DNA from: Candidatus Methanomethylicia archaeon
GTDB taxonomy: Archaea; Thermoproteota; Methanomethylicia; CALHIW01
Assembly: GCA_038845975.1 (NCBI GenBank)
Contig: JAWBQF010000047.1
Span: 1-14,691 of the forward strand
Length of the DNA stretch: 14,691 nucleotides
Direction: 5' to 3'
Of the stretch, positions 1,207 through 14,691 are shown in pieces. A model generated the notes under the pieces. It was not told where the DNA came from and searched no databases. It saw only the letters and a list, made by a program, of their open reading frames with translations. Within the stretch, counting starts at the first letter, position 1. Each line of letters begins with the position of its first letter. The translations under genes were made by a program, and so were the position numbers.

Positions 1207-1985
1207 TGCTTAGTCGCCATCTTAATCATTTTCTCAATGTCTTCATCAGTTATACCTTTTGATTTTCCTTCTTCAATCAATACTCTTATGAACTCCTCAT
1301 TACTAATCTCATTTTTTAAGTACTTTTGTAAAGCTTCAAAGCATTTATCACCTATTCTCTCACATAGTATTTTGAAGAACTTATTAGGATCTACATTACA
1401 TGCTGGACACTCACCATACTTAATCCTATACTTTTCAGCCATTTCATATGCCTTATCTAATAGCCTCTTAACCATATCTTTTGCAATTCTTAAATCATCT
1501 ATACTATTAGATACAGTTGTTAAACCTTTAGCCCACATAAACTTTCTAATATCTCTTTGAAGTACCTTTATTTCATCTAATGCTTTTTTAAATTCTTCAT
1601 CTTTAACATTTGTTCCAAGATCATCTTCAGCTGTTACTATTTCTTCTATTGCTCTTCTAATTTTCTCTCTAGCTTCTGGAGTTATTTTACCATACTTTAA
1701 GCTAAATCTCTCAGCTTCTTCCAATAATCCATGTGCTTTTGCATAATGACGCTCTAAACATTCTGCACATGCATCTTCTTTACTTTGACCTGGGTAACTT
1801 GGTGAGAAAACTCCAGTTTCTCTTTGCTCATAGATTGGCTTATATATTATCTTATTATCAAACTCATTAAGTACATTATCCAATTTTTTTATTATTGAAT
1901 CTAAGTCTTCTATTAATCTAAGTGGTACTTTAAGTACTTCATCTGGATTTTCAAATACTTTTAGTAATTTCTCCAACCTGACCAC
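1203..1985 (-). CDS. Alpha-helical hypothetical protein with CxxCxxxHxxxxH and CxxC motifs
   Basis: 260-aa ORF; motifs CAECLERHYAKAH and CPAC; overlaps the end of the 428-aa gene. Confidence 0.85.
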   Translation of the reverse strand: MVRLEKLLKVFENPDEVLKVPLRLIEDLDSIIKKLDNVLNEFDNKIIYKPIYEQRETGVFSPSYPGQSKEDACAECLERHYAKAHGLLEEAERFSLKYGKITPEAREKIRRAIEEIVTAEDDLGTNVKDEEFKKALDEIKVLQRDIRKFMWAKGLTTVSNSIDDLRIAKDMVKRLLDKAYEMAEKYRIKYGECPACNVDPNKFFKILCERIGDKCFEALQKYLKNEISNEEFIRVLIEEGKSKGITDEDIEKMIKMATKQ

Positions 1986-3237: not shown

Positions 3238-3283
3238 CCCATCCCCTCCTACTATACTTTATTACTAAAATATTAACTAAGTC

Positions 3284-3319
3284 TAGATCTAATCTTATAT
3301 ACTCAAGTATAAGTTGAGT
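3284..3319. promoter_or_regulatory. Overlapping palindromes upstream of the 428-aa gene (possible operator)
   Basis: TAGATCTA (3284-3291); TATAC-tcaa-GTATA; ACTCAA-n7-TTGAGT (3301-3319). Confidence 0.3.
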
Positions 3320-3332
3320 TAAATTTTCTATT

Positions 3333-3530
3333 CTATCCAGCATATCTCTCAGCCTCTATAGCCTTTAATATCTCATTAACCATAAAGTATAAGCATGCTC
3401 TCATAGTATCACCAATAGTTGGTTCTTTAATTTTACCTTGTTTATATAAATATTGAGCTAGTATTTCAATTACTTTTTTCTCCTCTTCTGTAACTCTAAT
3501 ACTTATTATTGTTGTAGTCATAATACACAC
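3333..3530 (-). CDS. RHH-like transcriptional regulator
   Basis: TIISIRVTEEEKKVIE (strand plus helix), then TIGDTMRACL (second helix); first gene of the left arm. Confidence 0.75.
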   Translation of the reverse strand: MCIMTTTIISIRVTEEEKKVIEILAQYLYKQGKIKEPTIGDTMRACLYFMVNEILKAIEAERYAG

Positions 3531-3643
3531 TAATATATATTGTATAATTAACTCTATTAAATATTTCGTTCAACTATTACACTATTGTAATGGTATAGTG
3601 TTACAAAATTATTTATACTATATTATAATTAATATGTATTTGT
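3531..3643. promoter_or_regulatory. Divergent promoter region with central inverted repeats
   Basis: TATA-like boxes in each direction (TTTATAC near 3612; ATTAAATA near 3556-3563). Central TTACACTAT-n9-ATAGTGTTA repeat (3577-3603) with interleaved TTACA/TGTAA half-sites. Confidence 0.6.
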
Positions 3644-4387
3644 GTGATAGAATTGATTAAGATAGGAGTTGTTAGTGGAAAAGGAGGGGTTGGAAAGAGT
3701 ACAATAGCAGTAAGTATGGCAATTGCATTAGTAAAGAAAGGATTCAAAGTTGGATTAGTAGATATTGATATAACAGGACCAAATATACATGACCTACTAG
3801 GTAAATCAGAATTAAAAATAACAAGTGATGATAAATTTATTCCTACAGAATCAATGGGAGTAAAATATATATCAATTGGAGAAATTGCAAGTGATGGACT
3901 TCCAATACTATGGGATTCTAAAGATGTTAAAAGTGCTGCTAAGCAATTAATGGAAAGAACTGAATGGGGAAATTTAGATTTCTTAATATTTGATTTCCCA
4001 CCTGGCTTTGGTCCTGAGGTAATTGAAATGCTTCCATTAATGGACTATGTTTTAATAGTTACTATTCCATCAGTTCTTTCTAAAAGCAAAGTTGATAGAA
4101 TTGTTGAAGCTTGTCGTGAATATCAAGTTAAAATACTTGGAGTAGTAATGAATATGTCTTACTTAATATGTCCATTTTGTAATACAAAATATAGAATATT
4201 TTCTGAAGACCATAGCTTTGAAGAATTAGGAATACCAACTATAGCTGAATTTCCATTTTGTAATACAAAATATATTAATGAATTTCCAGTAGAATCATTT
4301 ATAAAAGCATTGAATAATCCAATTATTCTAAAGAAGAAAAGATCACTTAAAAGAAAATTACTAAAATTATTATTGAAGGTGAGATAA
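3644..4387 (+). CDS. Mrp/NBP35-like (MinD/ParA superfamily) P-loop ATPase
   Basis: Deviant Walker A SGKGGVGKST; VDIDITGP; WGNLDFLIFDFPPG; LGVVMNMSYLICPFC (cf. Mrp ENMS...CPxC); basic amphipathic C-terminal tail. Confidence 0.92.
   Translation: MIELIKIGVVSGKGGVGKSTIAVSMAIALVKKGFKVGLVDIDITGPNIHDLLGKSELKITSDDKFIPTESMGVKYISIGEIASDGLPILWDSKDVKSAAKQLMERTEWGNLDFLIFDFPPGFGPEVIEMLPLMDYVLIVTIPSVLSKSKVDRIVEACREYQVKILGVVMNMSYLICPFCNTKYRIFSEDHSFEELGIPTIAEFPFCNTKYINEFPVESFIKALNNPIILKKKRSLKRKLLKLLLKVR
4171..4274 (+). repeat. Perfect 23-bp direct repeat inside the ATPase gene
   Basis: TCCATTTTGTAATACAAAATATA at 4171-4193 and 4252-4274; in frame, giving PFCNTKY twice. Confidence 0.95.
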
Positions 4388-4782
4388 TGGGATTTGTAAA
4401 AGACATAATAGATAAGATTCTATCTATTCAAGATAGATTTTATCCAGAGACAATTGAATACTATAAAATGGGAGAGGGGAAAGTATCATTATTGAGAGTA
4501 GTTGGTATAGATGGAGAATCAGTATTGCTTAAGGTTGATGGAGGAAAAATAAAATATGCTAAAGGAGATGAAACACCAGTACATATACTTAGATGTAGTA
4601 CAGATACATTCTTAGATCTTATTTCAGGAGAAGAGGATTTGAGAGATGCAATGACAAAAGGACACTTTATTATAGAAAGTGCAGCTACTTGTACAATGGA
4701 CTTAGTAGAAATGGAGAAATGGGCTAAGGCTTTTTCTAGACTTAGGAGATTAATAAATAAATATATTGGTGGTAAAGTATGA
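4387..4782 (+). CDS. SCP2 (sterol carrier protein 2)-like lipid-binding protein
   Basis: LKVDGGKIKY...ILRCSTDTFLDLISGEEDLRDAMTKGHFIIE matches the SCP2 pattern (..F..L..G..D...A...G.l.i.); TAATG coupling to the ATPase gene. Confidence 0.75.
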   Translation: MGFVKDIIDKILSIQDRFYPETIEYYKMGEGKVSLLRVVGIDGESVLLKVDGGKIKYAKGDETPVHILRCSTDTFLDLISGEEDLRDAMTKGHFIIESAATCTMDLVEMEKWAKAFSRLRRLINKYIGGKV

Positions 4783-5732
4783 ATGTATATGAATTATTTA
4801 AAGCAAGGGGTAAGTTTAGATTAAAGCATTATATATATGCATGGATTATATCAGCAAGACTTTTTGCACTACCATGGGTTATACTATATACTATATTCGG
4901 AATACTATTAGCTGGTATAACAAACATTGAAAGAGCTATTGCATCTTGTCTTATAGTAGCTTTTATTTTACTTTCATCACACTTTAATAATAATTATAAA
5001 GATGTTGAACTTGGCATAGATAAGTATGTGGATTCAATTGAAGAAGCTGAGAAGATATGTTCAACTTTAAAGCCATATACTGCTGGAGCTTGGATGGTTC
5101 CATTAAGAATAACAAGTATTAAATTTCAAAAAGCTAATGATTTTCTATTCATGACTTTAGCTATTTTGACTTACTTAATATTCTTTACAAAAGAATTAAG
5201 TATTTTAATTTCATCACTACCAATACTATTATTAGGATTATCTACTGGAAGACTATATACTACATTCTTTAAGTATAGAAAGTTGGGAGAAGTTGCTGCT
5301 TTCCTAGGTCATGGATTTGGAACAACAGCTTTTGGATTTCTATCACAAATACCTGATATTATAACTGCTATTCTAATTGGAATACCAACTGGTCTTATAT
5401 CAGCATTAGCATATAGTGTTGATCAATTTATAGATATAAAGACAGATTTCATTAAAAGAGTTAGATGTATTTATGAAAGTTGGTTCAATAGTAGAATGCC
5501 TCTTGGTCTATATGTTTTAGTAACGTTTGTATTTTGGATTAATGTTGTAATTGCATGGGTTGTTGCTGGAATATATCCACGTGGTGTATTAATTGTTATT
5601 TCATTAATACCTGCTTTTCTATTCTTTTCACCACAACTTGAGTATAATAGAGAGAAAGCACTACTTAATATTGTTATAATAGCAATTGTATTAATACCTC
5701 TTTTAATGTGTATAGGAGTAATAATTAAATGA
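4779..5732 (+). CDS. UbiA-superfamily intramembrane prenyltransferase, MenA/UBIAD1-like
   Basis: About 8-9 hydrophobic segments; AR...LP start; HFNNNYKDVELGID (cf. NxxNDYxDxxxGxD); KYRKLGE (cf. LKYRGLGE); second acidic motif DQFIDIKTD; ATGA coupling. Confidence 0.87.
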   Translation: MNVYELFKARGKFRLKHYIYAWIISARLFALPWVILYTIFGILLAGITNIERAIASCLIVAFILLSSHFNNNYKDVELGIDKYVDSIEEAEKICSTLKPYTAGAWMVPLRITSIKFQKANDFLFMTLAILTYLIFFTKELSILISSLPILLLGLSTGRLYTTFFKYRKLGEVAAFLGHGFGTTAFGFLSQIPDIITAILIGIPTGLISALAYSVDQFIDIKTDFIKRVRCIYESWFNSRMPLGLYVLVTFVFWINVVIAWVVAGIYPRGVLIVISLIPAFLFFSPQLEYNREKALLNIVIIAIVLIPLLMCIGVIIK

Positions 5733-5953
5733 AAAATAAATATAAGAAATTAGATTTTATTATTGGGGTGCTTGAAATGAATGAGTTAATAAAGGACTTT
5801 AGAAATGATATTAAGAAGTTAATTGAAACATTGATAACATTGAATAATAACTTAGCAAAGCTTGAGTCATTTACAGTATCAATAGAAAAGCTAACTAAGG
5901 AATTAGAAGAGATTAATAAAAACTTTAAACTTTTAATGGAGATGAATAAATAA
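5729..5953 (+). CDS. Small coiled-coil protein (alternative start at 5777, 58 aa)
   Basis: Heptad L/I pattern; GGGGTG RBS before the ATG at 5777; TAATG coupling to the protease gene. Confidence 0.75.
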   Translation: MKNKYKKLDFIIGVLEMNELIKDFRNDIKKLIETLITLNNNLAKLESFTVSIEKLTKELEEINKNFKLLMEMNK

Positions 5954-7158
5954 TGCCTAGATATTTGGTTGAGTTTTATCCAAATAAGCAAGAAGAAGTA
6001 TATAAAAGTCTTAAGAGTTTAGGTTTAACTCCACTAAGAAAAATTGCAGGAAAGTATTGGTCTGTAGAAGCTACTAAAGACTTAGTTCAAAAAATTGAAT
6101 CTATACCAGGTGTTATAAGGGTAATTGAGGAGAAAACATATCATATAGCATCTTTACCAATAGAGTTAAAGCTAGCTAAGTTTATAGAGATGGGAGGACC
6201 TTTAAATCCATTAGCATTGATATGGGCAGCTGGATTTAGAAAGGATAGATGGCCGACATCAGAATCGAGAAAGGTATTAGAGGCAAATATAGCAGATGAA
6301 ATTGGTATAAATGGGAAAGGAGTTAAAGTAGCTGTTTTAGATACAGGTTTTGATACCACTATCCAAAAGCCAGTAGTAGACTACATGGATTCAACACTTG
6401 AAGGAGATCCACTACCATTAGATAGTAATGGACACTCAACACATGTACTAACAACGATCTGCGGTAAAAGAATGCCAACACCATGGGGTTGGCTTGAGGG
6501 GATTGCTAAAGGAGTTCAAATAGCAACTATTAAATGCCTAGGATATGGAGTAGGAACTGCTAGAACTGCTGATGTAATAGAGGCAATTGCAAATGCATAT
6601 AATTGGGGTGCAAAGATAATTAACCTATCATTAGGAACTGACATAAATCCAGGTGAAACACATGATCCTGAAACTTGCCCACTATGTAACTTAATAACTG
6701 CATTGAGTAATAGAGGGGTTATATTCTGCGTTGCAACAGGAAACTCAGGTAAGGGATACGCAAGTTGCCCCGGAGCAAGCCCAGGAGCAATAACTGTTGC
6801 GGCCTTAAGGAAGGACCTATCCGTAGCAGACTTCTCATCAAGAGATCATCAAGTCTACACAAGTCTTAATAAGCCTGACGTAGGTGCTCCAGGGGTTGAT
6901 ACAGGCTCAAGTAGCACAGGCCTCATAGCGGCCATGGAATGGGTGGACGGCCCGAAGGTAGCATATATATCAGGATCAAGCATGGCAACGCCTCATTGTT
7001 CTGGCCTGTTCGCCCTATGGGTCGAGTACGCTAGGAGGAAAGGTGTTGAGCTGACTAGGGATGTTATTATGGATGTTATAGAACACTACTCTTATTGGAG
7101 GCCCGATGTTGGATACGGAGTCCCCAAGTTCTCGTGGATAGTTGACTACCTGAGGTGA
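5953..7158 (+). CDS. Subtilisin-family (S8) serine protease with N-terminal propeptide and no signal peptide
   Basis: Triad motifs VAVLDTG, NGHSTHV and SGSSMATPH; oxyanion ATGNSG; INLSLG; FSSR...KPDVGAPG; I9-like prodomain (YLVEF...IESIPGVIRVIEE). Confidence 0.95.
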   Translation: MPRYLVEFYPNKQEEVYKSLKSLGLTPLRKIAGKYWSVEATKDLVQKIESIPGVIRVIEEKTYHIASLPIELKLAKFIEMGGPLNPLALIWAAGFRKDRWPTSESRKVLEANIADEIGINGKGVKVAVLDTGFDTTIQKPVVDYMDSTLEGDPLPLDSNGHSTHVLTTICGKRMPTPWGWLEGIAKGVQIATIKCLGYGVGTARTADVIEAIANAYNWGAKIINLSLGTDINPGETHDPETCPLCNLITALSNRGVIFCVATGNSGKGYASCPGASPGAITVAALRKDLSVADFSSRDHQVYTSLNKPDVGAPGVDTGSSSTGLIAAMEWVDGPKVAYISGSSMATPHCSGLFALWVEYARRKGVELTRDVIMDVIEHYSYWRPDVGYGVPKFSWIVDYLR

Positions 7159-7162
7159 TCAT

Positions 7163-8002
7163 ATGTTGTTCAGCATTACTGTAAGGCTTCAGAGCGTTAA
7201 TCTTAGGAGACCTGAGTTCAACATCAAGAAAGGGTTGATGAGGCCATCACTATTTCCGTGGGCTCCTGTAGAGGTGGACAGTTCCAAAGCTATGAGCAGT
7301 GTTGCTGAGGTTGCACCGCTAGCACACGACGTTGTCGAATGGATGCACGTAGCGACGAGTGATTTAATAGTATTCAACGCTATGGAGGATGAGTACAACA
7401 GGCTCGGTAGTGAGCTAATATCATCATCTGGTGATGCATACATACCTGGCGTTAGGTGCGGTGATTTAAGGGGTGAGAGCGTGTCAGGATATACTGTTAG
7501 GTCTAGGGGCTATGGAACAGTTATAACTCCTGAGGGGTCCTTCAACGTACCTATTAGGGGTAAGACAACATTCGCTAAGGGAAGCGTAATTGCGTGGGCC
7601 GCCATACCAGACCCCGGGACAGGATGTCAGTGGGTCCTAACACTACTTCAGTGGAGGGACCTTGCTAGAGCACCTGTTAGGGATAGGGTTAGGTTCGGAA
7701 GCTCCTACGGATTAGTAGCACCTAACTTCTTCCTAATACCTCAGACAGTAGCACCGGTTAGAACTCTTAGGATTGGTATTACAAGTGATAAATCACAGAA
7801 GATTTTAATTAGGGGTAGGGGGACTAAGGGCTCATATGAGAGGGTGCTGTTTGAGGACTCATTCGAAGTAGATGCTGGTGAGAGCGAGGTAGTGTACAAC
7901 GTCTTATCATTCCCGTCAGTACCTGCATTCACGCTAGAGATACAGCCATCGGATAATACTCAAACAGTATTAGACTATATTGAAATATTACCACCATGGT
8001 GA
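7163..8002 (+). CDS. Beta-rich hypothetical protein (279 aa), possible structural protein
   Basis: GAGGTGA RBS; alternating hydrophobic beta pattern in the C-terminal ~100 aa; lies in a GC-elevated segment. Confidence 0.8.
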   Translation: MLFSITVRLQSVNLRRPEFNIKKGLMRPSLFPWAPVEVDSSKAMSSVAEVAPLAHDVVEWMHVATSDLIVFNAMEDEYNRLGSELISSSGDAYIPGVRCGDLRGESVSGYTVRSRGYGTVITPEGSFNVPIRGKTTFAKGSVIAWAAIPDPGTGCQWVLTLLQWRDLARAPVRDRVRFGSSYGLVAPNFFLIPQTVAPVRTLRIGITSDKSQKILIRGRGTKGSYERVLFEDSFEVDAGESEVVYNVLSFPSVPAFTLEIQPSDNTQTVLDYIEILPPW

Positions 8003-8319
8003 TTATAATGAAAATAAAACTACTACCCGAGGTAAATATACCTTTAATTAATGTAAGTCTACCATCTATTGAACTTCCAGAATTTCCTCCAAAGATTCCT
8101 AAACTTGATGAAAGACAAATTGATGTATTACGTTATGCAATAATGGATGATTTAGCTGATATAGTTCCATTCATAGGAGATGTACTTTCTGATATAGCTT
8201 ATGCTGAATTAAAGAAGAAACTAACCATTGATGAATATGAGCAATTTTTAAAAGATAATAAATGGCTTCCTTCTACTATAGCAGTATTGAAGACTTTTAC
8301 TGAACGGAAGACTTATTAA
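7996..8319 (+). CDS. Small Pro-rich protein with hydrophobic hairpin motif (probable start 8008)
   Basis: GGTGA RBS before the ATG at 8008; LP-rich N-terminus; DLADIVPFIGDVLSD motif. Confidence 0.75.
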   Translation: MVIIMKIKLLPEVNIPLINVSLPSIELPEFPPKIPKLDERQIDVLRYAIMDDLADIVPFIGDVLSDIAYAELKKKLTIDEYEQFLKDNKWLPSTIAVLKTFTERKTY

Positions 8320-8352
8320 GAAAGAAATATTGATTATATTTTGGTGGTTTGA

Positions 8353-8598
8353 ATGCCAGAGTTTGATTTAACAAAACCCCCACATAGAATTGCAGATGAA
8401 ATTTTAGACAGCTTAATTCACATACCTAAGGATCTATCTGAGACAATATCATCAGCAATAGATAAGGGACCACTAGGATCTACTGGTCCTCATAGAATGA
8501 TTGACAGCTTTGTTAAAGGTGTTGCAACAGCTATTGAAGATGTAGGTGAGGGAATAGCTAAAGCATTAGATATGCCAACAAAAGTGGTGAGAAAATAA
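8353..8598 (+). CDS. 81-aa amphipathic helical protein made of two internal repeats
   Basis: PHRxxD-x11-DxxExIxxAxD occurs twice; GGTGG RBS. Confidence 0.8.
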   Translation: MPEFDLTKPPHRIADEILDSLIHIPKDLSETISSAIDKGPLGSTGPHRMIDSFVKGVATAIEDVGEGIAKALDMPTKVVRK

Positions 8599-8906
8599 TG
8601 GATCTACCTAAGATATCTCAGTTCACAAAAGTTTTAGCAACACCAGAAGAATACTTAGAAAATATTATTAAGTCAACAATGGGAGTAGAAGTACCTCCTG
8701 GACCACAATCAGTTTTATTAAAGATTCAAACAGCAATAGAAAAAGGAGAAATGCCATCAATAGAAAGATTTATACCAACTATAAAAGCACCAAGATTACA
8801 AGATATATTATCAAGTATACCAAAAATACCAGAAATACAAACTGAAGTAGTACAAAAAACCGAAGAAATACAAAAAGTAAGAAAAGAAGAAACAATAGTA
8901 TTCTAA
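8598..8906 (+). CDS. Pro-rich hypothetical protein (102 aa)
   Basis: TAATG coupling; followed by an oligo-T tract at about 8929-8941. Confidence 0.78.
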   Translation: MDLPKISQFTKVLATPEEYLENIIKSTMGVEVPPGPQSVLLKIQTAIEKGEMPSIERFIPTIKAPRLQDILSSIPKIPEIQTEVVQKTEEIQKVRKEETIVF

Positions 8907-8959
8907 TCAAAATATAAAGATAAGTAATGTTTTTTCTATTTATAAGTAGTTATTTTTAT
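8907..8959. terminator. Probable terminator between convergent genes
   Basis: T-runs (8929-8935, 8953-8957) between the 102-aa gene and the reverse 52-aa gene. Confidence 0.45.
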
Positions 8960-9118
8960 CTAAAATGTTGGAGGTCTTCTTAATACCCCAGCCTTAATTA
9001 AAAGCTCTCTAAGTGCTTCAGCATAGCTCCTATAGTCAGATGCGTACCTTCTAAACGCTCTGTATAACTCATCATCGCATAATATATACAGCATCCTCTT
9101 ACTTATTTGCTTGGACAT
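8960..9118 (-). CDS. Unannotated 52-aa RHH-like DNA-binding protein MSKQISKRMLYILCDDELYRAFRRYASDYRSYAEALRELLIKAGVLRRPPTF
   Basis: Translated by hand. GGGAG RBS 6 nt upstream; strand (RMLYIL), helix (DDELYRAFRRYA), helix (SYAEALRELL); fills the only large gap in the right arm. Confidence 0.8.
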   Translation of the reverse strand: MSKQISKRMLYILCDDELYRAFRRYASDYRSYAEALRELLIKAGVLRRPPTF

Positions 9119-9179
9119 CTGAAACTCCCGAAATTTCAGGAATATATTTATAAGAGAAGGTTTAATATAAACTTATTGG
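9119..9179. promoter_or_regulatory. Compact bidirectional promoter with inverted repeat
   Basis: CTGAAA-n9-TTTCAG (9119-9139); ATATTTATAA at about 9144-9153, roughly 30 nt from both start codons. Confidence 0.55.
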
Positions 9180-9956
9180 GTGATGTTATTGTCTGAGAGA
9201 CCCGTACCTATAGAAGAAGTTCAAGCAGGAATACCCGTAGCAGCTCTTGAGAGAAGAACTGTAAGTTATGTAGATTTAAGTGATACAGAAAGGAAATGGG
9301 TTGAATATGTATTTAATTCAGGTGTAAAACATCTAAAAATTGTTGCACCTTCAATTGCAAGTGATATAGAAAGACAGAAGGATTTAGCAATAAGGATGGC
9401 TGGTGTTGCAAAAGCTACTTTCCCAGTTAGAAAGAACTACAACTTTCCAAGTGTTCCAGGTAGTTTAGGTGTTGCATGGTTATTCCCACAAGCAATAAAG
9501 TGGACTAAAACTCCAGATACATCTAATCCATGCTATACTAGTTATAAGGATAATAGTTGGGATATAGATGTAACAGCTGGTACTGCTGCATACTTATTAG
9601 GAGATGGAACAAACTTCTATAAAGCAAATCCAACTACAGAGCAACATACATTCATACTTATATTTGAGAATGGAGTAATAGAGGTTGGTTCAACACCAAC
9701 AATTGAACAATTCCACTTAATAAGTGAAGGTAAGAGAGATTATGGAATATATACAGTTGAGCCATTAGTAGATATACCAATTGAGAAAAATGTATCTATA
9801 TATCAGTATCCAACACCATTAGGAGCAGTTTTTGTAAGCCATGATAGAGGAATAATGTGGGGATTCATGCCAAGAACAAGTGGAACAAAGACAATAAAGC
9901 TACTTGGATTAGTCTTTTATGAACATGATTTCATGAGCAGATTGAAATGGATATAA
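9180..9956 (+). CDS. Candidate major capsid protein (N-terminal helices plus beta-sandwich/jelly-roll-like domain)
   Basis: The ORF itself is solid. Function is inferred from a dedicated promoter, pairing with a decoration-like protein, a strong terminator after the pair and a beta-rich C-terminal two-thirds. No homology search was run. Confidence 0.5.
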   Translation: MMLLSERPVPIEEVQAGIPVAALERRTVSYVDLSDTERKWVEYVFNSGVKHLKIVAPSIASDIERQKDLAIRMAGVAKATFPVRKNYNFPSVPGSLGVAWLFPQAIKWTKTPDTSNPCYTSYKDNSWDIDVTAGTAAYLLGDGTNFYKANPTTEQHTFILIFENGVIEVGSTPTIEQFHLISEGKRDYGIYTVEPLVDIPIEKNVSIYQYPTPLGAVFVSHDRGIMWGFMPRTSGTKTIKLLGLVFYEHDFMSRLKWI

Positions 9957-9967
9957 GGTGGTAGTAA

Positions 9968-10273
9968 ATGACAGTACTAGCTCTAACAGCTGATGGTAAG
10001 AAAATATCAGTAGTATCAGTTACTGGTCCATCATCATATACAGTAGGAGGATTTACAATAATAGTACCAGAGTTAGAAAGTATTCATTCAGTATTATATG
10101 CATTTATAACTGGAGGGTATAAAATCGGTGGATTATCAATAAGTAAAAATACTATTACAGTAACTATTCACTACTATAATTATCCAGCAACAGATGCTGG
10201 AACATCAGTTGAAATACCAGCTGGAACAGACCTAAGTGGACAAACAATAACTTTAGTAGTAATAGGAGTATAA
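9968..10273 (+). CDS. Capsid decoration/cement-like small beta protein
   Basis: GPSSYTVGG ... EIPAGTDLSGQTITLVVIG resembles the SY.TGG...E....DLS...G pattern I recall from proteins encoded just after capsid genes in prokaryotic viruses; AGGTGG RBS. Confidence 0.6.
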   Translation: MTVLALTADGKKISVVSVTGPSSYTVGGFTIIVPELESIHSVLYAFITGGYKIGGLSISKNTITVTIHYYNYPATDAGTSVEIPAGTDLSGQTITLVVIGV

Positions 10274-10312
10274 TTTTATCAATCTTTTTTTCTCTTTTTT
10301 TATTTTAATATT
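10274..10312 (+). terminator. Strong oligo-T terminator
   Basis: TTTTATCAATC followed by two long T runs directly after the stop codon. Confidence 0.7.
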
Positions 10313-10358
10313 TAACCAAAAATTTAAATTATCTTTAGATAAAATAGTACTTGGGAGA

Positions 10359-11147
10359 GTGATTGTATTGGATAAGAATATTTTAGACTCATATGGTCTA
10401 GTTACTGAGAACCAATTTATAGTTGTATATATTCCAGCTAGAATAACAGCACTTGTATTCAGAGTTAAAAGCAGGGTTAATAAAGGATATGAAGTATTAA
10501 ACTATGGTTCACTACCACTTATAGCAGGAGAGGTTATACCAACATACGAAGGTGGAAGTATAACTGTTCCAGCTGATGGTGTAATGCCTGCAAGATCATA
10601 TATACCAACTGGAAGAAGCTTTTCACTACATGGAGCATTTGATGAATCAGATATGTGGTATACTCATGAGGATGATAGAAATAGACTTTTCCATGTTATT
10701 CATATGGTTACACCTGAGTTCTTGAGAATAGATGTTCAAATACCAAAAGGTGTTACTCAGGGTAGATTTCAAGGAGATAGAGTTGTAACTGGAATTGATA
10801 AAGAATTTGGATTTACAAGGGGTAAAGTAGAGGTAGTACATATTCCTAGATTACGCTATGGCTATAGATGGGGAAATGATACAAATCTAACAGTAAGAAC
10901 ATTTGTTAAGTTCATCTATGGAGAATATATAGTTGAAATACCTAAAGACTCATCTCTTATATTCGATATTCTAACTAAGAAGATTCAAAGCCATTGGATT
11001 ACACTACCAATTAGTGTTTGGGATCCAGCAATTGAAGTAGCACTACAGTTAACATATGGCTTTACAGGATTCCCAATATATGGAATACATGAGAGGGATA
11101 AAGCAATAAGAGAGTATAATGATATACTTAAGTTGATTAAATTATGA
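10359..11147 (+). CDS. Beta-rich hypothetical protein (262 aa), possible second capsid/structural protein
   Basis: GGGAG RBS and TTTAAA box upstream; G/Y/V-rich beta pattern. Confidence 0.8.
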   Translation: MIVLDKNILDSYGLVTENQFIVVYIPARITALVFRVKSRVNKGYEVLNYGSLPLIAGEVIPTYEGGSITVPADGVMPARSYIPTGRSFSLHGAFDESDMWYTHEDDRNRLFHVIHMVTPEFLRIDVQIPKGVTQGRFQGDRVVTGIDKEFGFTRGKVEVVHIPRLRYGYRWGNDTNLTVRTFVKFIYGEYIVEIPKDSSLIFDILTKKIQSHWITLPISVWDPAIEVALQLTYGFTGFPIYGIHERDKAIREYNDILKLIKL

Positions 11148-11157
11148 GGTGATATAA

Positions 11158-11544
11158 ATGGGAGAGCTATTAGTATTAAGAGGAGAAACAACTGGTACTG
11201 ATACAAGTGGAGTTATTAATCTAGACTCAGATATATTATATACAACAGTTAGCTATGTCATAATACCAAAGGGTATAAAGTGTAGGATATGGTTTAAGAA
11301 TATTAGTGGTGAGGGAGAAACACTTTTCACACTTCAATATACATCTGATGTAACAGTACCTCAACCTATTTGGAAGGATATACAACAAGAAAAACTTACT
11401 TCTAAAGGTGAAATATCTATAGAGAAGCGTAGACCATTAGTACTAAGAGGATTAACAGGTAAAGAAGCATTTAGAATAACCTATAATCAACCAACTGCAA
11501 CCAAAGCCTATATAGAGCTTGGAGTTGAGATGGGTGAAGATTGA
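11158..11544 (+). CDS. Small all-beta protein (128 aa), putative structural
   Basis: GAGGTGA RBS; about 8 alternating-hydrophobic strands. Confidence 0.8.
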   Translation: MGELLVLRGETTGTDTSGVINLDSDILYTTVSYVIIPKGIKCRIWFKNISGEGETLFTLQYTSDVTVPQPIWKDIQQEKLTSKGEISIEKRRPLVLRGLTGKEAFRITYNQPTATKAYIELGVEMGED

Positions 11545-11662
11545 AGAGAATATATTAGAGGCTCTTAAGAAGGGAAAAATGGTTATAGTTAAAGGAGTAT
11601 GTGAGAGTAAAGTAAAGATAGAGTGTCCAAAGGATAAGATTGAAATAATAGTGAGGAGCTAA
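11534..11662 (+). CDS. Unannotated 42-aa protein MKIEENILEALKKGKMVIVKGVCESKVKIECPKDKIEIIVRS
   Basis: Translated by hand. GTG start overlaps the previous gene's end with GGAG upstream; stop lies 2 nt before the next ATG; fills the gap exactly. Confidence 0.65.
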   Translation: MKIEENILEALKKGKMVIVKGVCESKVKIECPKDKIEIIVRS

Positions 11663-11664
11663 AA

Positions 11665-12144
11665 ATGCCAAGTACAGGAGCAGTAAAAGTACCATTAATA
11701 CTTGAGCTACTTTGGATAATTGGAGATATAGAATTCCTCCATGATACTGGAACATATTATCTTCCTCCAGGTCTAGATATAACATTGAACTGGAGTCCTG
11801 AAGAGGATAACAAAGTATTTATTATATTTGCTATAACATTTGGTGAGCCTAGAAGACTTGATACAGGTGAAGTAGTTCATACAGATCAAATTGGATTCTG
11901 GCATAGAGGTCCAGGAATGAAACTACACTGGGATCCATTAGTTCAATCAATTACTAATATAACATATCCACATATAACCCCTACAACTAAGGAGAGTCCA
12001 TTTGAAATACGCTTTATTAATAGGACTAATATGATGGTATATCTTGATGTATCTGTATGGTATTTTGAATTAACTAAAAGTAAGTATAAAGAAATTGTTG
12101 ATTTTATAAGAGGTTTTATGAACTACTTCAGGAAAATAAAGTAA
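11665..12144 (+). CDS. Beta-rich protein (159 aa) with C-terminal amphipathic helix, putative structural
   Basis: GAGGAG RBS; beta pattern, then KYKEIVDFIRGFMNYFRKIK. Confidence 0.8.
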   Translation: MPSTGAVKVPLILELLWIIGDIEFLHDTGTYYLPPGLDITLNWSPEEDNKVFIIFAITFGEPRRLDTGEVVHTDQIGFWHRGPGMKLHWDPLVQSITNITYPHITPTTKESPFEIRFINRTNMMVYLDVSVWYFELTKSKYKEIVDFIRGFMNYFRKIK

Positions 12145-12187
12145 ACATTTTTTAGTTTGATTATCATAAATTCTACTGTGGTTTAAA

Positions 12188-12430
12188 TTGTATATTGATG
12201 AGGACTTAGTTGAGAGAGCTAAACATATTATGAATAGTCGACCTACTTATGTAATTGAAGAACCTATTTATGAACGATTAAATATTGATCCATTTATGAC
12301 AATTTTACTACTTCCATTCCTACCATTCATACTAATAGCTCAGGCTATTATTAAACCTAGAAGGAGACTACTTATAACTGAGATAGAAAAGACCCAAACT
12401 GGATATAGAATATTGGAGTATGAGATATAA
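12188..12430 (+). CDS. Small single-pass membrane protein (80 aa)
   Basis: Hydrophobic PFMTILLLPFLPFILIAQAII followed by KPRRR and a C-terminal beta hairpin. Confidence 0.75.
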   Translation: MYIDEDLVERAKHIMNSRPTYVIEEPIYERLNIDPFMTILLLPFLPFILIAQAIIKPRRRLLITEIEKTQTGYRILEYEI

Positions 12431-12921
12431 TGATTGATGAAGAAATACTGCTAGATATACTTAAGAAGAAGTTAGTAATTAGACCATGGATACCAATAGT
12501 TATTGCTGATATAATTAGTGAAAAGATTATACCAAAGCAACCTACTGTATCTTATCCACCTACAATACCTCAACCAGTAACTAGGATAGTTGATCTTAAA
12601 GAAATGCTAATCAGTAGAGACTTAACTCTATTAGATATAATGTATGGTGGAAAGCTTCATGAACTAATACTATGTTCAAATAATAAGAACTACTCAGTGA
12701 AGTTTATTACAGACAAAGTAGTTAGGATTGATAAGTCATTTACAGAGCTACAGTTAATAAGCCCATATATAGACACTATATCAGCATTTGAAGAGAATGG
12801 TAAGTTCATATTACATATTAAGGACTTCTCATGGGCTAACTCTGCTCATGTATCTATAATTGTTAAAGAGCCAATAACTTTTTATCAAATATTCATCAAA
12901 TATGATGAATTTATTAAATAG
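12430..12921 (+). CDS. Hypothetical protein (163 aa): Pro-rich linker plus beta-sandwich, putative structural
   Basis: TAATG coupling; composition. Confidence 0.8.
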   Translation: MIDEEILLDILKKKLVIRPWIPIVIADIISEKIIPKQPTVSYPPTIPQPVTRIVDLKEMLISRDLTLLDIMYGGKLHELILCSNNKNYSVKFITDKVVRIDKSFTELQLISPYIDTISAFEENGKFILHIKDFSWANSAHVSIIVKEPITFYQIFIKYDEFIK

Positions 12922-12973
12922 TACTAAATTTATATTTTTGAACTTAATATTATATTTTTGTGTGGTGTTGTGT

Positions 12974-13333
12974 ATGTCTAGCGTGGAGATTCTACATTAT
13001 TTAAAAAAGAATTTGGGAATAATTATTAAGAGGCTTGAGGAGAGCGGCGTTCTAGCGATTCCAACTGCCAGGGATCACTTATTTATTCCGGAGGTTGAGG
13101 TTGACGATACCGGAGTATCTCTCAACGTAAACGGCTTCCTACACTATATTAAGGTTCCAGCCGACTACCAACCAGTCAAATTTAACTTAGATAGACCGAT
13201 AACGGATAGAGAATACTCCGTAGTATATCCTGGCGTGGCTAAAATAGTATCTAGAGTAGCTAGAACCCTCTATCTTAAAGCTCCATCTGGTCAAAGAACG
13301 AAAGCTATCGTAGAGGTGCTTAAGTTTGGATGA
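12974..13333 (+). CDS. Small beta-sandwich protein (119 aa; start reassigned from 12902 to 12974)
   Basis: GGTG RBS before the ATG at 12974; 12922-12960 is AT-rich and promoter-like; C-terminus resembles the last domain of the 300-aa protein. Confidence 0.75.
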   Translation: MSSVEILHYLKKNLGIIIKRLEESGVLAIPTARDHLFIPEVEVDDTGVSLNVNGFLHYIKVPADYQPVKFNLDRPITDREYSVVYPGVAKIVSRVARTLYLKAPSGQRTKAIVEVLKFG

Positions 13334-13514
13334 AGTAATAGCTTTAATTAAAATGAGTGGAGGGGACTACGCCTTGATTTATCAAATAGCTAGAAACGAG
13401 AGAAAAACGGTTAATGAATGGATAATGACGTGTATTTTAGAAAAATTAGAAAGACTTCAGGAAGAATGGAGAGTTAAGCAAAAAATACAGGTTAATGAGG
13501 AGAGTAGGAGGTGA
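13326..13514 (+). CDS. RHH-like protein with C-terminal helix (62 aa)
   Basis: IALIKM strand, DYALIYQIARNE helix, TVNEWIMTCILEKL helix; GAGGTG RBS before TTG. Confidence 0.65.
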   Translation: MDEVIALIKMSGGDYALIYQIARNERKTVNEWIMTCILEKLERLQEEWRVKQKIQVNEESRR

Positions 13515-13520
13515 TAAGTT

Positions 13521-14423
13521 TTGTCTTTAATAGAGTTTCTCGACCCAGCGTATGTAAAAGGTAAGTTAGATACTTTCGATAGTAAATTAGACGTCGCTCT
13601 ATCGACTAGAGCTTCAGAAACTACATTAACTGCTTTAAGTAATAAATTTCCTAGTGCTACTACTTTAGGAGATTCTTTATCAAATCCAACAACAACTATA
13701 ATAGGCGGGGCTCTATTGGGTTGGGATAGCGCCGGCGGCGTCTGGGAGAGAGTATATACCGACGGTTCTAATAGACTTAAAGTTCAATTAGATACTATAC
13801 CTAATCCATCTAATTTAGACACAGCTCTTTCAACAAGACTCTCCGAAACAACCTTTACTAGTAGATGGGATGGAGGAATATATGGCTTTGATGGAACTAC
13901 TGCTAGAAAAATAAGAACTGATACAGACGGACACTTACAAATAGACGTCTTAACTACCTCTAATCCTCCAAACTTCGATGTGGCTTTAAGTACTAGAGCT
14001 AGTGAATCAACACTATCATCAATATTAAGTAAGTTAGACGTAAATCTTTCTACTAGATTATCAGATTCAAAGATACCTAATGCCCTCGGTCAAGCAAGTT
14101 TAGACGTAGTTGGCTCTACAATGTATGCTTTAGGCGTTGTGCCTTCTTATCTGCCGTCTAGAATGCCTTATTGTGTTGCTAATATTTCGGTTGGCACCAC
14201 GGAGAGTAGCACAGCTATATCGACTCCCGGAGGAAAGCTATTAATACTTAGGAATAAAGGAGACGTAGATATTCAGATAGGCATAAATGGCTCAGTCCCA
14301 GCTACCAACCCATTAATTCTAAGAGCTAGGACGATTAGAATATTCCCCTTCAAAAGTGTTACTGCAATATATTATAAAACGGCCGCCGGAAGTAGTACTC
14401 TAGATATAGAATACTGGAACTAG
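13521..14423 (+). CDS. Fibre/spike-like protein with LDxxLSTR repeats and C-terminal beta-sandwich
   Basis: S/T/G-rich; four [LF]DxxLSTR[AL]S repeats at 13587, 13815, 13974 and 14034; GGAGGTGA RBS. Confidence 0.7.
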   Translation: MSLIEFLDPAYVKGKLDTFDSKLDVALSTRASETTLTALSNKFPSATTLGDSLSNPTTTIIGGALLGWDSAGGVWERVYTDGSNRLKVQLDTIPNPSNLDTALSTRLSETTFTSRWDGGIYGFDGTTARKIRTDTDGHLQIDVLTTSNPPNFDVALSTRASESTLSSILSKLDVNLSTRLSDSKIPNALGQASLDVVGSTMYALGVVPSYLPSRMPYCVANISVGTTESSTAISTPGGKLLILRNKGDVDIQIGINGSVPATNPLILRARTIRIFPFKSVTAIYYKTAAGSSTLDIEYWN

Positions 14424-14434
14424 AGGGGTCTGAT

Positions 14435-14671
14435 TTGAACGAATACGAATATTTATTCGACTCTCCCGAACTACTAAAGGATAAGCCCCTCGACGCAGCA
14501 TATATACTGGAAGTGGTGAGCAAATCTAAGTTGAAGCCGATTGTGGTTAGAGTCGATAATTATAGGGGGCAAGTCATCTTCTACTTCGAAAAAACGCTCG
14601 GGAAAGAAGAAAAGAGCGAATTAGACCTGCTGGTTAAGAAGATCTTTCAGGAATGGAAGAGGTGGAAGTAG
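14435..14671 (+). CDS. Hypothetical protein (78 aa)
   Basis: GAGGGG RBS; tight packing between neighbours. Confidence 0.72.
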   Translation: MNEYEYLFDSPELLKDKPLDAAYILEVVSKSKLKPIVVRVDNYRGQVIFYFEKTLGKEEKSELDLLVKKIFQEWKRWK

Positions 14672-14691
14672 ATGACGGTATTCGAGTTTTT
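14672..14691 (+). CDS. 5' fragment of the next gene (MTVFEF...), truncated by the window edge
   Basis: GAGGTGG RBS; ATG immediately after the previous stop. Confidence 0.55.

Follow-up and report, generated by a model that had tools for sequence, protein, structure and literature searches.

What does the run of small genes at 7163-14691 of this contig build? The window analysed here is the entire contig, 14,691 bp without terminal repeats, from a genome (G000) of the phylum Thermoproteota. A preliminary description read the run as the morphogenesis block of an undescribed, probably membrane-containing archaeal virus with jelly-roll capsid genes, with a domesticated locus as the alternative. 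As a whole, that reading is partly supported.

Gene content of the block

Fifteen co-oriented open reading frames (ORFs), A to O, were called on the plus strand (Table 1), close to the 16 or so first reported, but a 52-aa gene on the minus strand had been missed. The block genes are real, because dN/dS against four relatives is 0.04-0.25, indicative of purifying selection, wherever dS was computable, dS being saturated in many of the gene pairs (in E, for example, dN is 0.07 and dS saturated). None of the fifteen ORFs matched Pfam or NCBIfam, and the sole match in PHROGs is that of M, to a family without assigned function. As first described, terminase, portal, HK97 and tail families were not matched in Pfam, PHROGs or NCBIfam, and HK97-type genes were found neither in the window nor in the relatives scanned. 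The 52-aa gene has no NCBIfam match; its size and sequence pattern suggest that it is probably a ribbon-helix-helix (rhh)-type regulator.

Table 1. Features of the window and of the block, with related loci designated L
Feature	Coordinates (strand)	Size (aa)	Observations
P-loop ATPase	3644..4387 (+)		Mrp/NBP35-ParA type; Pfam PF10609, E 5.9e-58; NCBIfam MrpORP, E 1.9e-52, under cut-off
SCP2-like protein	4387..4782 (+)		Lipid carrier fold; weak match, Pfam PF02036, E 4.3e-4, 21.0 bits against a cut-off of 21.3; syntenic in L002, L005, L112
Polytopic membrane protein	4779..5732 (+)	317	Divergent UbiA prenyltransferase family member; strongly hydrophobic segments
S8 protease	5953..7158 (+)		Subtilisin-like serine protease; Pfam PF00082, E 3.7e-38
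A	7163..8002 (+)	279	Always after the S8 protease
B, C, D	7996..8906 (+)	107, 81, 102	Small acidic proteins, pI 4.9-5.5; syntenic among relatives
52-aa gene	8960..9118 (-)	52	Divergent from E
E	9180..9956 (+)	258	Most conserved core protein
F	9968..10273 (+)	101	Small core protein
G	10359..11147 (+)	262	Second core structural candidate
H	11158..11544 (+)	128	Third core protein
I	11665..12144 (+)	159	Kept in part of the family (cluster 15, 19 loci); 72-79% identity to close relatives
J	12188..12430 (+)	80	One transmembrane segment; syntenic in L002, L003, L005
K	12430..12921 (+)	163	Kept in L002, L003, L005, L006, L008
L	12902..13333 (+)	143 (ORF)	CRISPR protospacer at 13033-13065
M	13326..13514 (+)	62	Weak match to PHROG 13890, E 8e-4; syntenic in L003, L012, L013
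N	13521..14423 (+)	300	Repeat-bearing, fibre-like; second protospacer from 14217
O	14435..14671 (+)	78	Syntenic in L003, L005

By a hydrophobic-window scan, transmembrane-grade hydrophobicity is confined to J (a 19-residue window at residues 37-55, score 2.38), which is the small transmembrane protein noted previously, and to a doubtful N-terminal extension of L. No such stretch occurs in A, E, F, G, H, I, K or N, and no signal peptide was seen at the N-termini of the conserved proteins among them when the translations were read by eye. The protein first listed as 119 aa is L, whose relatives are 119-126 aa long and align from residue 20-27 of the ORF; judged from these alignments, translation probably starts at 12974, giving 119 aa. 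The repeat-containing fibre is N, in which an A-L-S-T-R motif is repeated (3 DNA matches against 0.10 expected by chance). N has no match in the PDB or the virus database and is a candidate host-recognition protein. Beyond O, L003 and L005 encode kelch-like, glycine-rich and fibre-like proteins, followed in L005 by an integrase, and the block of the relatives runs on past the position matching the contig end. Contigs in public sequencing runs extend past the left end of the window, and the element is therefore incomplete in it.

Gene A has no family match in Pfam, PHROGs or NCBIfam and none in the PDB, and P-x-I/P-K-I-like repeats can be read in the translations of B and D. Given that the S8 protease and B-C-D are likewise found in two genomes devoid of E, G and H, the block as first delimited comprises at least two modules. 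The protease also matches PHROG 3677 'protease' (E 1.2e-43), and its Asp, His and Ser motifs are legible in the translation. Further upstream, the Mrp/NBP35-ParA-type ATPase is the sole NTPase in the window and part of a variable left-hand module; it was found in 10 of 34 related loci of at least 9 kb. The 317-aa protein has no direct match in Pfam, NCBIfam or the PDB; among its 53 homologues, 13 carry a precomputed PF01040 (UbiA) domain, and 7 bear the name 1,4-dihydroxy-2-naphthoate octaprenyltransferase in their source. At the corresponding position, another relative encodes a polyprenyl synthase and a member of the geranylgeranyl-reductase family. Isoprenoid enzymes encoded by the elements recur next to the block, which gives some support to the upstream lipid module proposed earlier.

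Distribution, mobility and the conserved core

The core around E was found in about 150 confirmed metagenome stretches, on short contigs whose bins belong to many unrelated lineages, which the source records give as Bathyarchaeia, Nitrososphaerota, Thermofilaceae, Jordarchaeales, Desulfurococcaceae, Sulfolobales and even bacterial bins. The family is widespread in hot-spring archaea, and its proteins are unlike those of any catalogued virus. Within the host phylum, the element occurs in 2 of 401 genomes, G000 included, and E is absent from the other genome of the same genus (62% complete). The GC content of related loci of at least 9 kb is 37.6%-67.9%, against 33.6% in the window.

Mobility is evident in several relatives, which carry tyrosine integrases. 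The 19,271-bp contig of L005 terminates in a 293-aa integrase, integrase cluster c70 (PF00589, E 2.7e-18) occurs in 5 of the 34 large loci, and a sister-type copy within a 182.7-kb chromosomal contig has an integrase and an IS-type transposase at its borders, with its protease truncated. In sequencing run X4, from a different hot-spring study, CRISPR-repeat sequence adjoins the protospacer in L on either side and precedes the one in N. The X4 repeat is close kin of the repeat of G000, but none of the 62 spacers of G000 matches the window or its relatives.

Over 6901-7800 the window is 99.0-99.7% identical in DNA to L012, whereas dS is saturated in the flanking genes; the tract of about 99% identity that the two have in common is 1.1 kb long. 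The A protein is 98.6% identical to that of L012, with dS 0.053, and its gene has a GC3 of 0.44, compared with 0.08-0.37 in the remaining block genes; the GC content of L012 is 45.8%. These comparisons indicate that gene A was recently swapped by recombination and that the element recombines with relatives of different GC content.

The gene order rhh-E-F-G-H is combined with left and right arms of very different kinds, in integrase-based elements of about 20 kb and in a self-replicating, complete genome of about 90 kb. E is represented by 189 homologous clusters at 90% identity and by 100 representatives at 50% identity, mostly of 230-324 aa, plus some shorter fragments. The F family, including the homologous cluster c13 (hhalign probability 98.6%), occurs in 66 of the 71 loci that extend far enough downstream. 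By the same measure, G (143 homologous clusters) is present in 37 of 41 and H, whose profile has no match in the PDB, in 35 of 38. The 52-aa gene is kept in 63 loci, and in 58 of the 78 loci with at least 350 bp upstream.

The complete genome is G401, a distant relative from a virus collection, which is 89,732 bp long with a 127-bp direct terminal repeat and is rated 100% complete by CheckV. G401 encodes a family B DNA polymerase, a primase-polymerase, helicases and methylases, and retains the 52-aa gene, E, F, G and H together with a trypsin-like protease. Among the small relatives, no whole contig of at least 9 kb is circular or has inverted ends, and there is thus no complete genome of the window's own type. 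The sporadic distribution, the integrases, the complete relative, the spacer matches, the 1.1-kb recombinant tract and the want of HK97-type genes support the earlier proposal in so far as the block belongs to an undescribed, virus-like mobile element of archaea, one that is targeted by CRISPR. The inspection of the flanks that had been suggested yielded integrases in relatives but no FtsK/HerA-type packaging ATPase, even in G401. Nor did the window, the 19.3-kb contig or G401 contain a recognisable packaging ATPase of another type, a terminase, a portal or any further viral hallmark.

Predicted folds and the role of the core

The AlphaFold model of E (pLDDT 93.9) consists of three N-terminal helices followed by a jelly-roll-like β-sandwich, and that of G (pLDDT 91.1) of a β-sandwich followed by C-terminal helices. 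The two proteins of about 260 aa, described previously as all-beta, therefore each contain the sandwich but also a helical part. The top structural matches of E are the β-helices of 2OG-oxygenases (Z 4.7), and its match to the SPV1 capsid chain has Z 4.5 over 139 residues, where by the search tool's own note a Z below 8 may mean only a common arrangement. In a wide structural search, virus capsid proteins make up 17 of the 50 matches listed for E by our count, including those of SPV1, PBCV-1, ASFV (p72), PRD1, PM2 and HCIV-1. For G the best Z is 4.0-4.2, and about 29 of the 50 matches listed are, again by our count, virus coat or vertex proteins. No HK97-fold capsid protein is among the matches listed for either. 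Foldseek found nothing in the PDB at E <= 0.001 for either model and, among predicted viral structures, only generic C1q/TNF-like sandwiches. The best matches are jelly rolls or double-stranded β-helices, but with Z at most 4.7, and the models lend weak support to E and G being jelly-roll capsid proteins. E is the candidate major structural protein.

We consider it rather probable that the block is the module that builds the virion in a family of virus-like mobile elements, hitherto undescribed and widespread, of thermophilic archaea. It would be a late operon, E first, under the control of the small divergent regulator. E and G, as single jelly-roll-like sandwiches with a helical arm, would be the major structural proteins, F and H minor or vertex components, and J a small membrane protein. 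Particles would be assembled in the cytoplasm, given that the structural proteins lack signal peptides. Since no packaging NTPase is recognisable, the DNA may be enclosed while the particle forms, the route assumed for several families of archaeal viruses in which no packaging ATPase is known. Host binding would fall to N and to the variable kelch, LamG and Ig-like proteins encoded downstream in relatives. The S8 protease and A-D would form a separable accessory module with a role in maturation or in entry or exit. The UbiA, SCP2 and isoprenoid genes may alter lipids, which would be compatible with, but not proof of, a lipid-containing particle.

The element may instead be a virus in which E, G and H serve in adsorption or as vertex or decoration components, the shell being built from the product of gene A in the small elements and from other proteins in the 90-kb relative. 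This is unlikely, and several observations are in its favor. In G401, large ORFs (922 and 856 aa) take up about 7.8 kb between E and G, and two ORFs downstream have matches in PHROGs, to a family annotated as tail fibre (E 2.9e-6) and to PHROG 5417. In L046, sugar-metabolism genes sit between E and G. The β-sandwich matches also include lectins, carbohydrate-binding modules, C1q-like tail-fibre tips and the PRD1 P5 vertex protein, and A is as well conserved as E within the window's subgroup. However, A occurs, together with the S8 protease, in only 12 of 90 loci and is missing from G401, whereas E, G and H are retained more widely than any other genes, whatever the genome size or the arms. Parts that bind receptors tend to be variable, a pattern that N follows (40-58% identity among relatives), and the 'tape measure' PHROG match of the 922-aa protein spans only a 51-residue low-complexity P-K-I repeat.

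Also unlikely is a non-viral integrative element or plasmid whose core builds an intracellular or cell-associated structure rather than an infectious particle, for example a protein compartment that holds isoprenoid enzymes and serves host or element. The want of a recognised viral hallmark gene and the recurrence of isoprenoid enzymes beside the block suit such an element, ParA/Mrp-type ATPases and integrases are typical of plasmids and integrative elements, and plasmids are also targeted by CRISPR spacers. The L023 polyprenyl synthase shows a likeness, below the cut-off, to an encapsulin cargo family (E 2.4e-33; 115.8 bits, cut-off 450), but encapsulins have the HK97 fold, and no capsid protein of that fold is among the matches listed for E or G. 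Against a non-viral element, too, stand the terminally redundant G401, with the same core and its own replication machinery, the long variable fibre-like, kelch, LamG and Ig-like proteins of relatives, as in virus adsorption modules, and the absence of conjugation genes from every Pfam scan.

A cellular locus of the binned archaeon, whether domesticated or ordinary, such as an envelope or S-layer-related operon, would suit the binning of the contig with G000 at similar GC (33.6% against about 34%) and the chromosomal sister-type copy, but it is highly improbable because of the element's sporadic distribution, and the missing signal peptides, the bounds of that chromosomal copy, the spacer hits and the tract in common with a 45.8%-GC relative all argue against it.

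Comparison with known virus families

The favored reading as a virion-building module does not by itself carry the architecture first proposed. An icosahedral shape, penton and spike roles and an internal membrane are not supported by these results, in which neither a sequence match to a deposited virus nor, even in G401, an FtsK/HerA-type packaging ATPase was found. Kinship with Turriviridae, Halopanivirales and Portogloboviridae likewise finds no backing, since the block has no sequence match to deposited viruses. No particle of the present element has been seen; those three groups are, according to the preliminary description, icosahedral viruses with an internal membrane.

Gene content and conserved core

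The contig that carries the block belongs to a genome bin (G000; 2.77 Mb in 76 contigs, about 34% GC) in which an archaeal 16S rRNA was not found, and no terminal repeats, tRNA genes or Rfam families were detected in its 14,691 bp. The preliminary description had recognised the co-oriented genes, which between position 7163 and the contig's end come to 15 ORFs (A to O), but had overlooked a 52-aa gene on the minus strand that diverges from E. This small gene lies on the same strand for every copy in 63 related loci and, from its size and pattern, reads as a ribbon-helix-helix-type regulator; it has no match in NCBIfam. In L012, L013 and several other loci an additional N-terminal domain of roughly 100 aa brings its total to 157-174 aa. 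By eye, the spacer ahead of E includes an A+T-rich, TATA-like stretch about 28 bp before the E start and a 6-bp inverted repeat, CTGAAA ... TTTCAG. For all block genes, dN/dS is 0.04-0.25 against four relatives wherever dS is unsaturated, and all look real by this comparison of sequences. None of the 15 ORFs matches a family in Pfam or NCBIfam, and the sole PHROG match, that of M, is weak (E-value 8e-4) and leads to a family of unknown function. K and N were considered as paralogues within the window and rejected as such.

Coordinates of features in the window and in related loci
Feature	Located on	Position	Strand	Length
428-aa protein	window	1951-3237	-	428 aa
Mrp/ParA-type ATPase gene	window	3644-4387		
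Direct repeat within the ATPase gene	window	4168-4193 and 4249-4274		26 nt
317-aa membrane protein gene	window	4779-5732		317 aa
Weak SCP2-like protein	window, upstream of the block			
S8 subtilase	window, upstream of the block			
Exchanged tract	window	6901-7995		~1.1 kb
ORF A	window, block	 	+	279 aa
ORF B	window, block		+	
ORF C	window, block		+	
ORF D	window, block		+	
52-aa gene	window, diverging from E	8960-9118	-	52 aa
Spacer ahead of E	window	9119-9179		61 bp
ORF E	window, block		+	258 aa
ORF F	window, block		+	101 aa
ORF G	window, block		+	262 aa
ORF H	window, block		+	128 aa
ORF I	window, block		+	159 aa
ORF J	window, block		+	80 aa
ORF K	window, block		+	163 aa
ORF L	window, block		+	143 aa (probably 119)
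ORF M	window, block		+	62 aa
ORF N	window, block		+	300 aa
ORF O	window, block		+	78 aa
Stretch between CRISPR-type repeats	window, gene L	13033-13065		
Stretch preceded by a CRISPR-type repeat	window, gene N	from 14217		
Isoprenoid genes	L023	2746-4685		
Selfish insert	L002	8654-9703		
Selfish insert	L011			
Selfish insert	L015	5851-6450		
Selfish insert	L021	15971-16864		
Selfish insert	L076	1472-3343		
Selfish insert	L023	20098-20762		
922-aa protein	L096 (G401)	9072-11840		922 aa
Sister type	L112 (G087:C20), 11.2-kb contig	2602-4435		
Sister type	L113 (G018:C7), at ~173-177 kb of a 182.7-kb contig	7283-9297		

The S8 subtilase upstream of the block has recognisable Asp, His and Ser motifs in its translation, and the Mrp/ParA-type ATPase is the only NTPase in the window. 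The two copies of the direct repeat in the ATPase gene are 96% identical and encode a duplicated C-P-F-C-N-T-K-Y motif, which may be a doubled metal-binding site. The 428-aa protein has an N-terminal zinc-finger-like C-x2-C...H-x4-H, then a Pro/Tyr/Gln-rich stretch and a long charged coiled-coil-like tail; it is kept in L002 and L013 and matches no family.

The ORFs of 90 related loci were clustered, and the genes around E were counted only in loci with enough room for them. The regulator was found in 58 of 78 such loci, the F family in 66 of 71, G in 37 of 41 and H in 35 of 38; F and cluster c13 are homologous (hhalign probability 98.6%). The gap from E to G has a median of 448 bp and can hold cargo, such as sugar-metabolism genes (L046) or 7.8 kb of ORFs (L010), and I, J, K, L, N and O are conserved in only part of the family. 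The left arm of the window's subgroup consists of the ParA/Mrp ATPase, the SCP2-like gene, the 317-aa protein, S8 (13 of the 90 loci) and A (12 loci). Other subgroups have in this arm a tyrosine integrase (Pfam PF00589, E-value 2.7e-18; 5 of 34 large loci), a trypsin-like protease, Ig-like and CarboxypepD_reg proteins, glycosyltransferases and an M14 carboxypeptidase, and also TFIIB, LAGLIDADG endonucleases and an intein. The right arm of close relatives runs beyond the window's end, with kelch-like, LamG-kelch (1,217 aa), glycine-rich (465 aa) and more fibre-like proteins, and small membrane proteins and a 293-aa integrase lie at the right end of the L005 contig (19,271 bp). Several relatives contain selfish inserts: an adenine methylase of the D12 class placed between D and the regulator gene, endonucleases of the LAGLIDADG type and a fragment of a Hint/intein.

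A complete relative and the predicted folds of E and G

The core is shared with G401 (L010; L096-L100), a distant relative of 89,732 bp from the IMG/VR virus collection; its ends carry a direct repeat of 127 bp, and CheckV rates it 100% complete. G401 encodes a family B DNA polymerase, a 1,168-aa primase-polymerase protein, XPD-like and SNF2-like helicases, an MCM-like ATPase, thymidylate synthase, a topoisomerase, three DNA methylases and an integrase-like protein, and is itself a large virus of unknown type. Profile searches recover the regulator, E, F, G, H and the trypsin-like protease of other relatives in G401, and nothing further that the window carries. Virus hallmark modules serve genomes of very different size and lifestyle, and a core common to small integrative genomes and to the large, self-replicating G401 behaves as such modules do. 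It is on balance probable that the block is a virion-building module, with E and G as its major structural proteins.

The statement of the preliminary description that terminase, portal and HK97-type capsid genes are lacking was borne out for every ORF of the window in Pfam, PHROGs and NCBIfam, and Caudoviricetes/HK97 hallmarks were found neither in 120 ORFs of eight large relatives nor in G401. For G401, 101 ORFs were scanned against Pfam and 64 against PHROGs, and terminase, portal, HK97 capsid and FtsK/HerA ATPase were not found at an E-value of 1e-4 or below, nor was a capsid gene of another kind recognised. The FtsK/HerA-type packaging ATPase, which had been suggested as a thing to look for, was found in neither the window nor G401, with 0 of 101 G401 ORFs in that family, although a very divergent ATPase could escape the models. 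The 922-aa protein of G401 was rejected as a tape measure, given that its PHROG match covers a 51-residue P-K-I repeat only; it has a run of P-K-I/V-E-x repeats, which P-x-I motifs in the window's small proteins B and D resemble. Two ORFs downstream in G401 match a PHROG annotated as tail fibre, which keeps alive a rival to the virion-building module, namely that E, G and H serve for adsorption or decoration in a virus with a shell of other proteins. This is rather unlikely.

AlphaFold2 models were built from alignments of 32 homologues of E (pLDDT 93.9, pTM 0.92) and 36 of G (pLDDT 91.1, pTM 0.86). The E model is a confident one and shows a short arm at the N-terminus and, at residues 35-80, three helices, besides a sandwich made up of some ten strands; in the G model, also confident, the sandwich spans residues 10-195 and is accompanied by helices at the C-terminus and a single disordered loop. 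Neither model has a Foldseek match in the PDB at an E-value of 0.001 or below, and in BFVD the E model matches generic C1q/TNF-like sandwiches only (best E-value 6.7e-5). The exhaustive structural aligner used, by whose own note unmatched models typically reach a best Z of 7-8, scores E no higher than Z 4.7. At the head of the matches stand 2OG oxygenases and a BsmA homologue of the double-stranded beta-helix fold, with 149-159 residues aligned over the whole protein, and the next is the SPV1 capsid chain 6oj0_T (Z 4.5, rmsd 5.2, 139 residues aligned). Proteins of PBCV-1, EhV, ASFV (p72), faustovirus, PRD1, PM2 and HCIV-1 and satellite-virus coat proteins follow at Z 3.3-4.1, such that capsid proteins make up 17 of the best 50 matches by manual count. 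For G, the best Z is 4.0-4.2 (polyhedrin), and about 29 of the best 50 matches, again counted manually, are picornavirus, bromovirus, tombusvirus or PRD1 vertex proteins, with Z of at most 3.9 and high rmsd. The proposed jelly-roll folds, checked for E and G, are weakly supported by the sandwich and the jelly-roll-like matches; Z values of 3.3-4.7 would suggest a jelly-roll-like arrangement at most, and no kinship.

When the PDB was searched by sequence, neither the E, G and H profiles nor A, N or the 317-aa protein gave a usable match, E returning four with E-values of at least 0.28. In the ESM Atlas, A and E have weak leads that score at best 0.78 and 0.84, respectively, with no structure there for either. 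E and G were rejected as paralogues of one another (hhalign E-values 0.41 and 0.54). An assignment of E as a 2OG/Fe(II) oxygenase was also rejected. These enzymes carry an H-x-D/E...H iron-binding triad, and the 34 invariant columns among 32 E-family sequences include zero His and zero Asp, H249 alone being a nearly invariant His, so that the triad cannot be conserved. The conserved proteins have no hydrophobic segments, and signal peptides are absent by reading, which argues for cytoplasmic assembly and against an envelope or pilus structure. That a non-viral element uses the block to build some other structure is improbable beside the virion-building reading.

Distribution, mobility and exchange

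The E family is represented by 189 related clusters at 90% identity, by 100 representatives at 50% identity among 1.84 billion proteins (most of 230-324 aa, with some shorter fragments) and by 150 confirmed stretches in JGI metagenomes, 80 of which were retrieved; G has 143 clusters. The bins named for E and G proteins are of Bathyarchaeia, Nitrososphaerota, Thermofilaceae, Jordarchaeales, Methanomethyliaceae, Desulfurococcaceae and Sulfolobales, with three different copies in one Desulfurococcaceae bin, and source records assign some such proteins to bacterial bins from Guaymas as well. Of 401 sampled genomes of the phylum to which G000 belongs, 2 carry E, namely G000 itself and G306. The GC content of related loci of at least 9 kb ranges from 37.6% to 67.9%. 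Such sporadic presence in many bins and so wide a GC range fit a mobile element adapting to many hosts rather than a cellular gene, and make a cellular locus very improbable. The family as a whole has the marks of integrative elements, with its sporadic spread and a tyrosine recombinase in 5 of 34 large loci and on the L005 contig; no integrase lies inside the window, which is an incomplete contig. Terminal repeats were not found among whole contigs of relatives, nor evidence of circularity among the small relatives' whole contigs of at least 9 kb.

The block has no blastn match among deposited viruses; E, G and N have no tblastn match in 50,697 phage and archaeal virus records, nor E in plasmids, and IMG/VR gave no match with E alone and one locus, L010, with the E profile. 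A PHROG scan of 25 distant E-family members gave only one match (E-value 0.006), to a family of unknown function, and a DNA search of 401 genomes with the whole window gave mostly short chance or P-loop matches. At the level of titles and abstracts, no description of this gene set was found in the literature, and the double jelly-roll, His1-like spindle and SIRV2-like filamentous viruses described in PMC9246712 are all unlike this element. Several hot-spring and vent studies together yield about 150 metagenome stretches and about 100 protein clusters with the core, which the virus databases and family libraries searched lack, and E is a practical marker for detecting these elements.

Exchange between elements is visible at gene A, which has a GC3 of 0.44 as compared to 0.08-0.37 in the other block genes. 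Against L012, whose GC content is 45.8%, window positions 6901-7800 show 99.0-99.7% identity, which decays gradually leftward (92%, 86%, 76%) and is lost after about 7995, with a sharp edge at the end of A. The tract spans the 3' end of the S8 gene and the whole of A, whose protein is 98.6% identical to the L012 copy (dS 0.053), whereas E has a dS of about 2 against the same contig. The tract was thus swapped very recently, between elements whose hosts differ in GC. In G087 and G018, genomes of the phylum that lack E, what comes after S8-(A)-B-C-D is not rhh-E-F-G-H but a trio of unrelated-looking proteins (232, 239 and 112 aa), so the protease-A-D module and the E-H module are separable. The copies of this sister type are 91-93% identical in protein; that of G018, with a truncated protease, bounded by an integrase and an IS-type transposase and adjoining cellular sugar genes, is an integrated remnant. 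No match to the trio was found in virus databases (tblastn of the 232- and 239-aa proteins against phages). The 239-aa protein has a faint likeness to G (E-values 0.022 and 0.0058, probability 2-6%), and none was found between the 232-aa protein and E or between the 112-aa protein and H or F.

Parts of the block are present in six hot-spring metagenome runs of three studies, and contigs of four runs (X1-X4) were compared with the window. Contigs from X1-X3 cover 30 of 30 bins of the window, and more than half of the aligned contigs continue into unlike sequence, which points to a mosaic population. The window contig is incomplete, given that one loose end extends 255 letters before position 10. 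A joint on one X4 contig that skips 2843-8527 was rejected as too weak (40 letters on the shorter side, at a likeness threshold of 90). The spacer matching that had been proposed for finding the host gave a divided result. The 62 spacers of the two CRISPR arrays of G000, on C6 and C27, have only chance matches of at most 20 nt to the window and all retrieved related loci, but an X4 contig, from another study, has the gene L stretch, which is not of low complexity, with CTTTCAATTCTCTTTGTGAGATT(C) on both sides, and a second has CTTTCAATTCTCTTTATGAGATTC immediately ahead of the gene N stretch. Both flanking sequences correspond, on the reverse strand, to a CRISPR repeat that is nearly that of G000, GAATCTCAAATAAAGAGAATTGAAAG. 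These stretches read as spacers with which a relative of G000 targets the element, and they support both its mobility and its host lineage. The core thereby offers a CRISPR link to that lineage.

Isoprenoid genes and comparison with known viruses

The upstream lipid module of the preliminary description gains some support in its isoprenoid part, the SCP2-like match being weak. The 317-aa protein has no direct match in Pfam, NCBIfam or the PDB, but 13 of its 53 homologues, all on contigs of at most 34.6 kb, have the UbiA domain PF01040 and 7 are named octaprenyltransferase in their source records; it is probably a divergent UbiA-family prenyltransferase. At the same place, L023 has a polyprenyl diphosphate synthase (Pfam E-value 2e-37) and a geranylgeranyl-reductase-family protein (NCBIfam E-value 1.3e-30, below the cut-off). 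The small transmembrane protein J and the SCP2-like gene are further indirect hints of lipid in the particle. The recurrence of isoprenoid genes is notable and would fit a particle that contains lipid.

Of all viruses, those of archaea are the least well charted, and most of their known families come from a few cultured hosts. If E and G form the shell, they would be a new family of shell proteins and the elements a common, still unnamed group of viruses that infect thermophilic archaea, and the prenyltransferase, polyprenyl synthase and geranylgeranyl reductase would be rare viral genes for archaeal ether lipids. A bolder and more doubtful proposal, advanced tentatively, is that E and G are a new shell-protein lineage, unrelated in sequence and barely related in structure to known capsids, of a new high-rank group of archaeal viruses from hot springs and hydrothermal sediments, with genomes from integrative ones of about 20 kb to self-replicating ones of 90 kb, many of which would encode isoprenoid-lipid enzymes with which to build or remodel the membrane of the virus. 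The lineage first proposed is right in kind, as an undescribed archaeal virus-like element without HK97-type genes; its icosahedral shape, internal membrane and kinship with Turriviridae, Halopanivirales or Portogloboviridae are putative.

Outside of viruses, the 2OG/Fe(II) oxygenases provide the best whole-length matches to E (6lnh_A, Z 4.7, 149-150 residues aligned; PHD2, Z about 4) and similarly have N-terminal helices before the sandwich, but the gene context of E is a mobile element, not metabolism. Turriviridae (STIV) share hot-spring archaeal hosts with these elements, and PBCV-1, ASFV p72, PRD1 P3 and PM2 P2, of the double jelly-roll viruses (Varidnaviria type), are among the matches to E at Z 3.4-4.1. 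However, E and G have one sandwich each in about 260 residues rather than two, the matches align to a single roll only (113-145 residues), and no packaging ATPase was found. Halopanivirales, or Sphaerolipoviridae in the old sense (HCIV-1, PDB 6h9c), are tailless, icosahedral and membrane-containing viruses whose two vertical single-jelly-roll capsid proteins form heteromeric capsomers. They resemble the elements in having two neighbouring, co-conserved beta-sandwich genes, like E and G, with small membrane proteins nearby; HCIV-1 is among the E matches at an uninformative Z of 3.3. An FtsK/HerA-type packaging ATPase adjoins the capsid genes in viruses of this type but was found neither here nor in G401, and E and G are without detectable kinship to each other.

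Portogloboviridae (SPV1, PDB 6oj0) differ in that no sequence similarity links the elements to any deposited virus, the Z of 4.5 being within the chance range, that E and G are of about 260 aa with helical arms, and that the elements have integrases, an S8 or trypsin-like protease and isoprenoid enzymes. The likenesses are hosts among Thermoproteota, the lack of a recognisable packaging ATPase, a genome of roughly 20 kb, as in the small relatives here, and shell proteins of single jelly-roll type, to be compared with the jelly-roll-like E and G, SPV1 being the best virus match to E.
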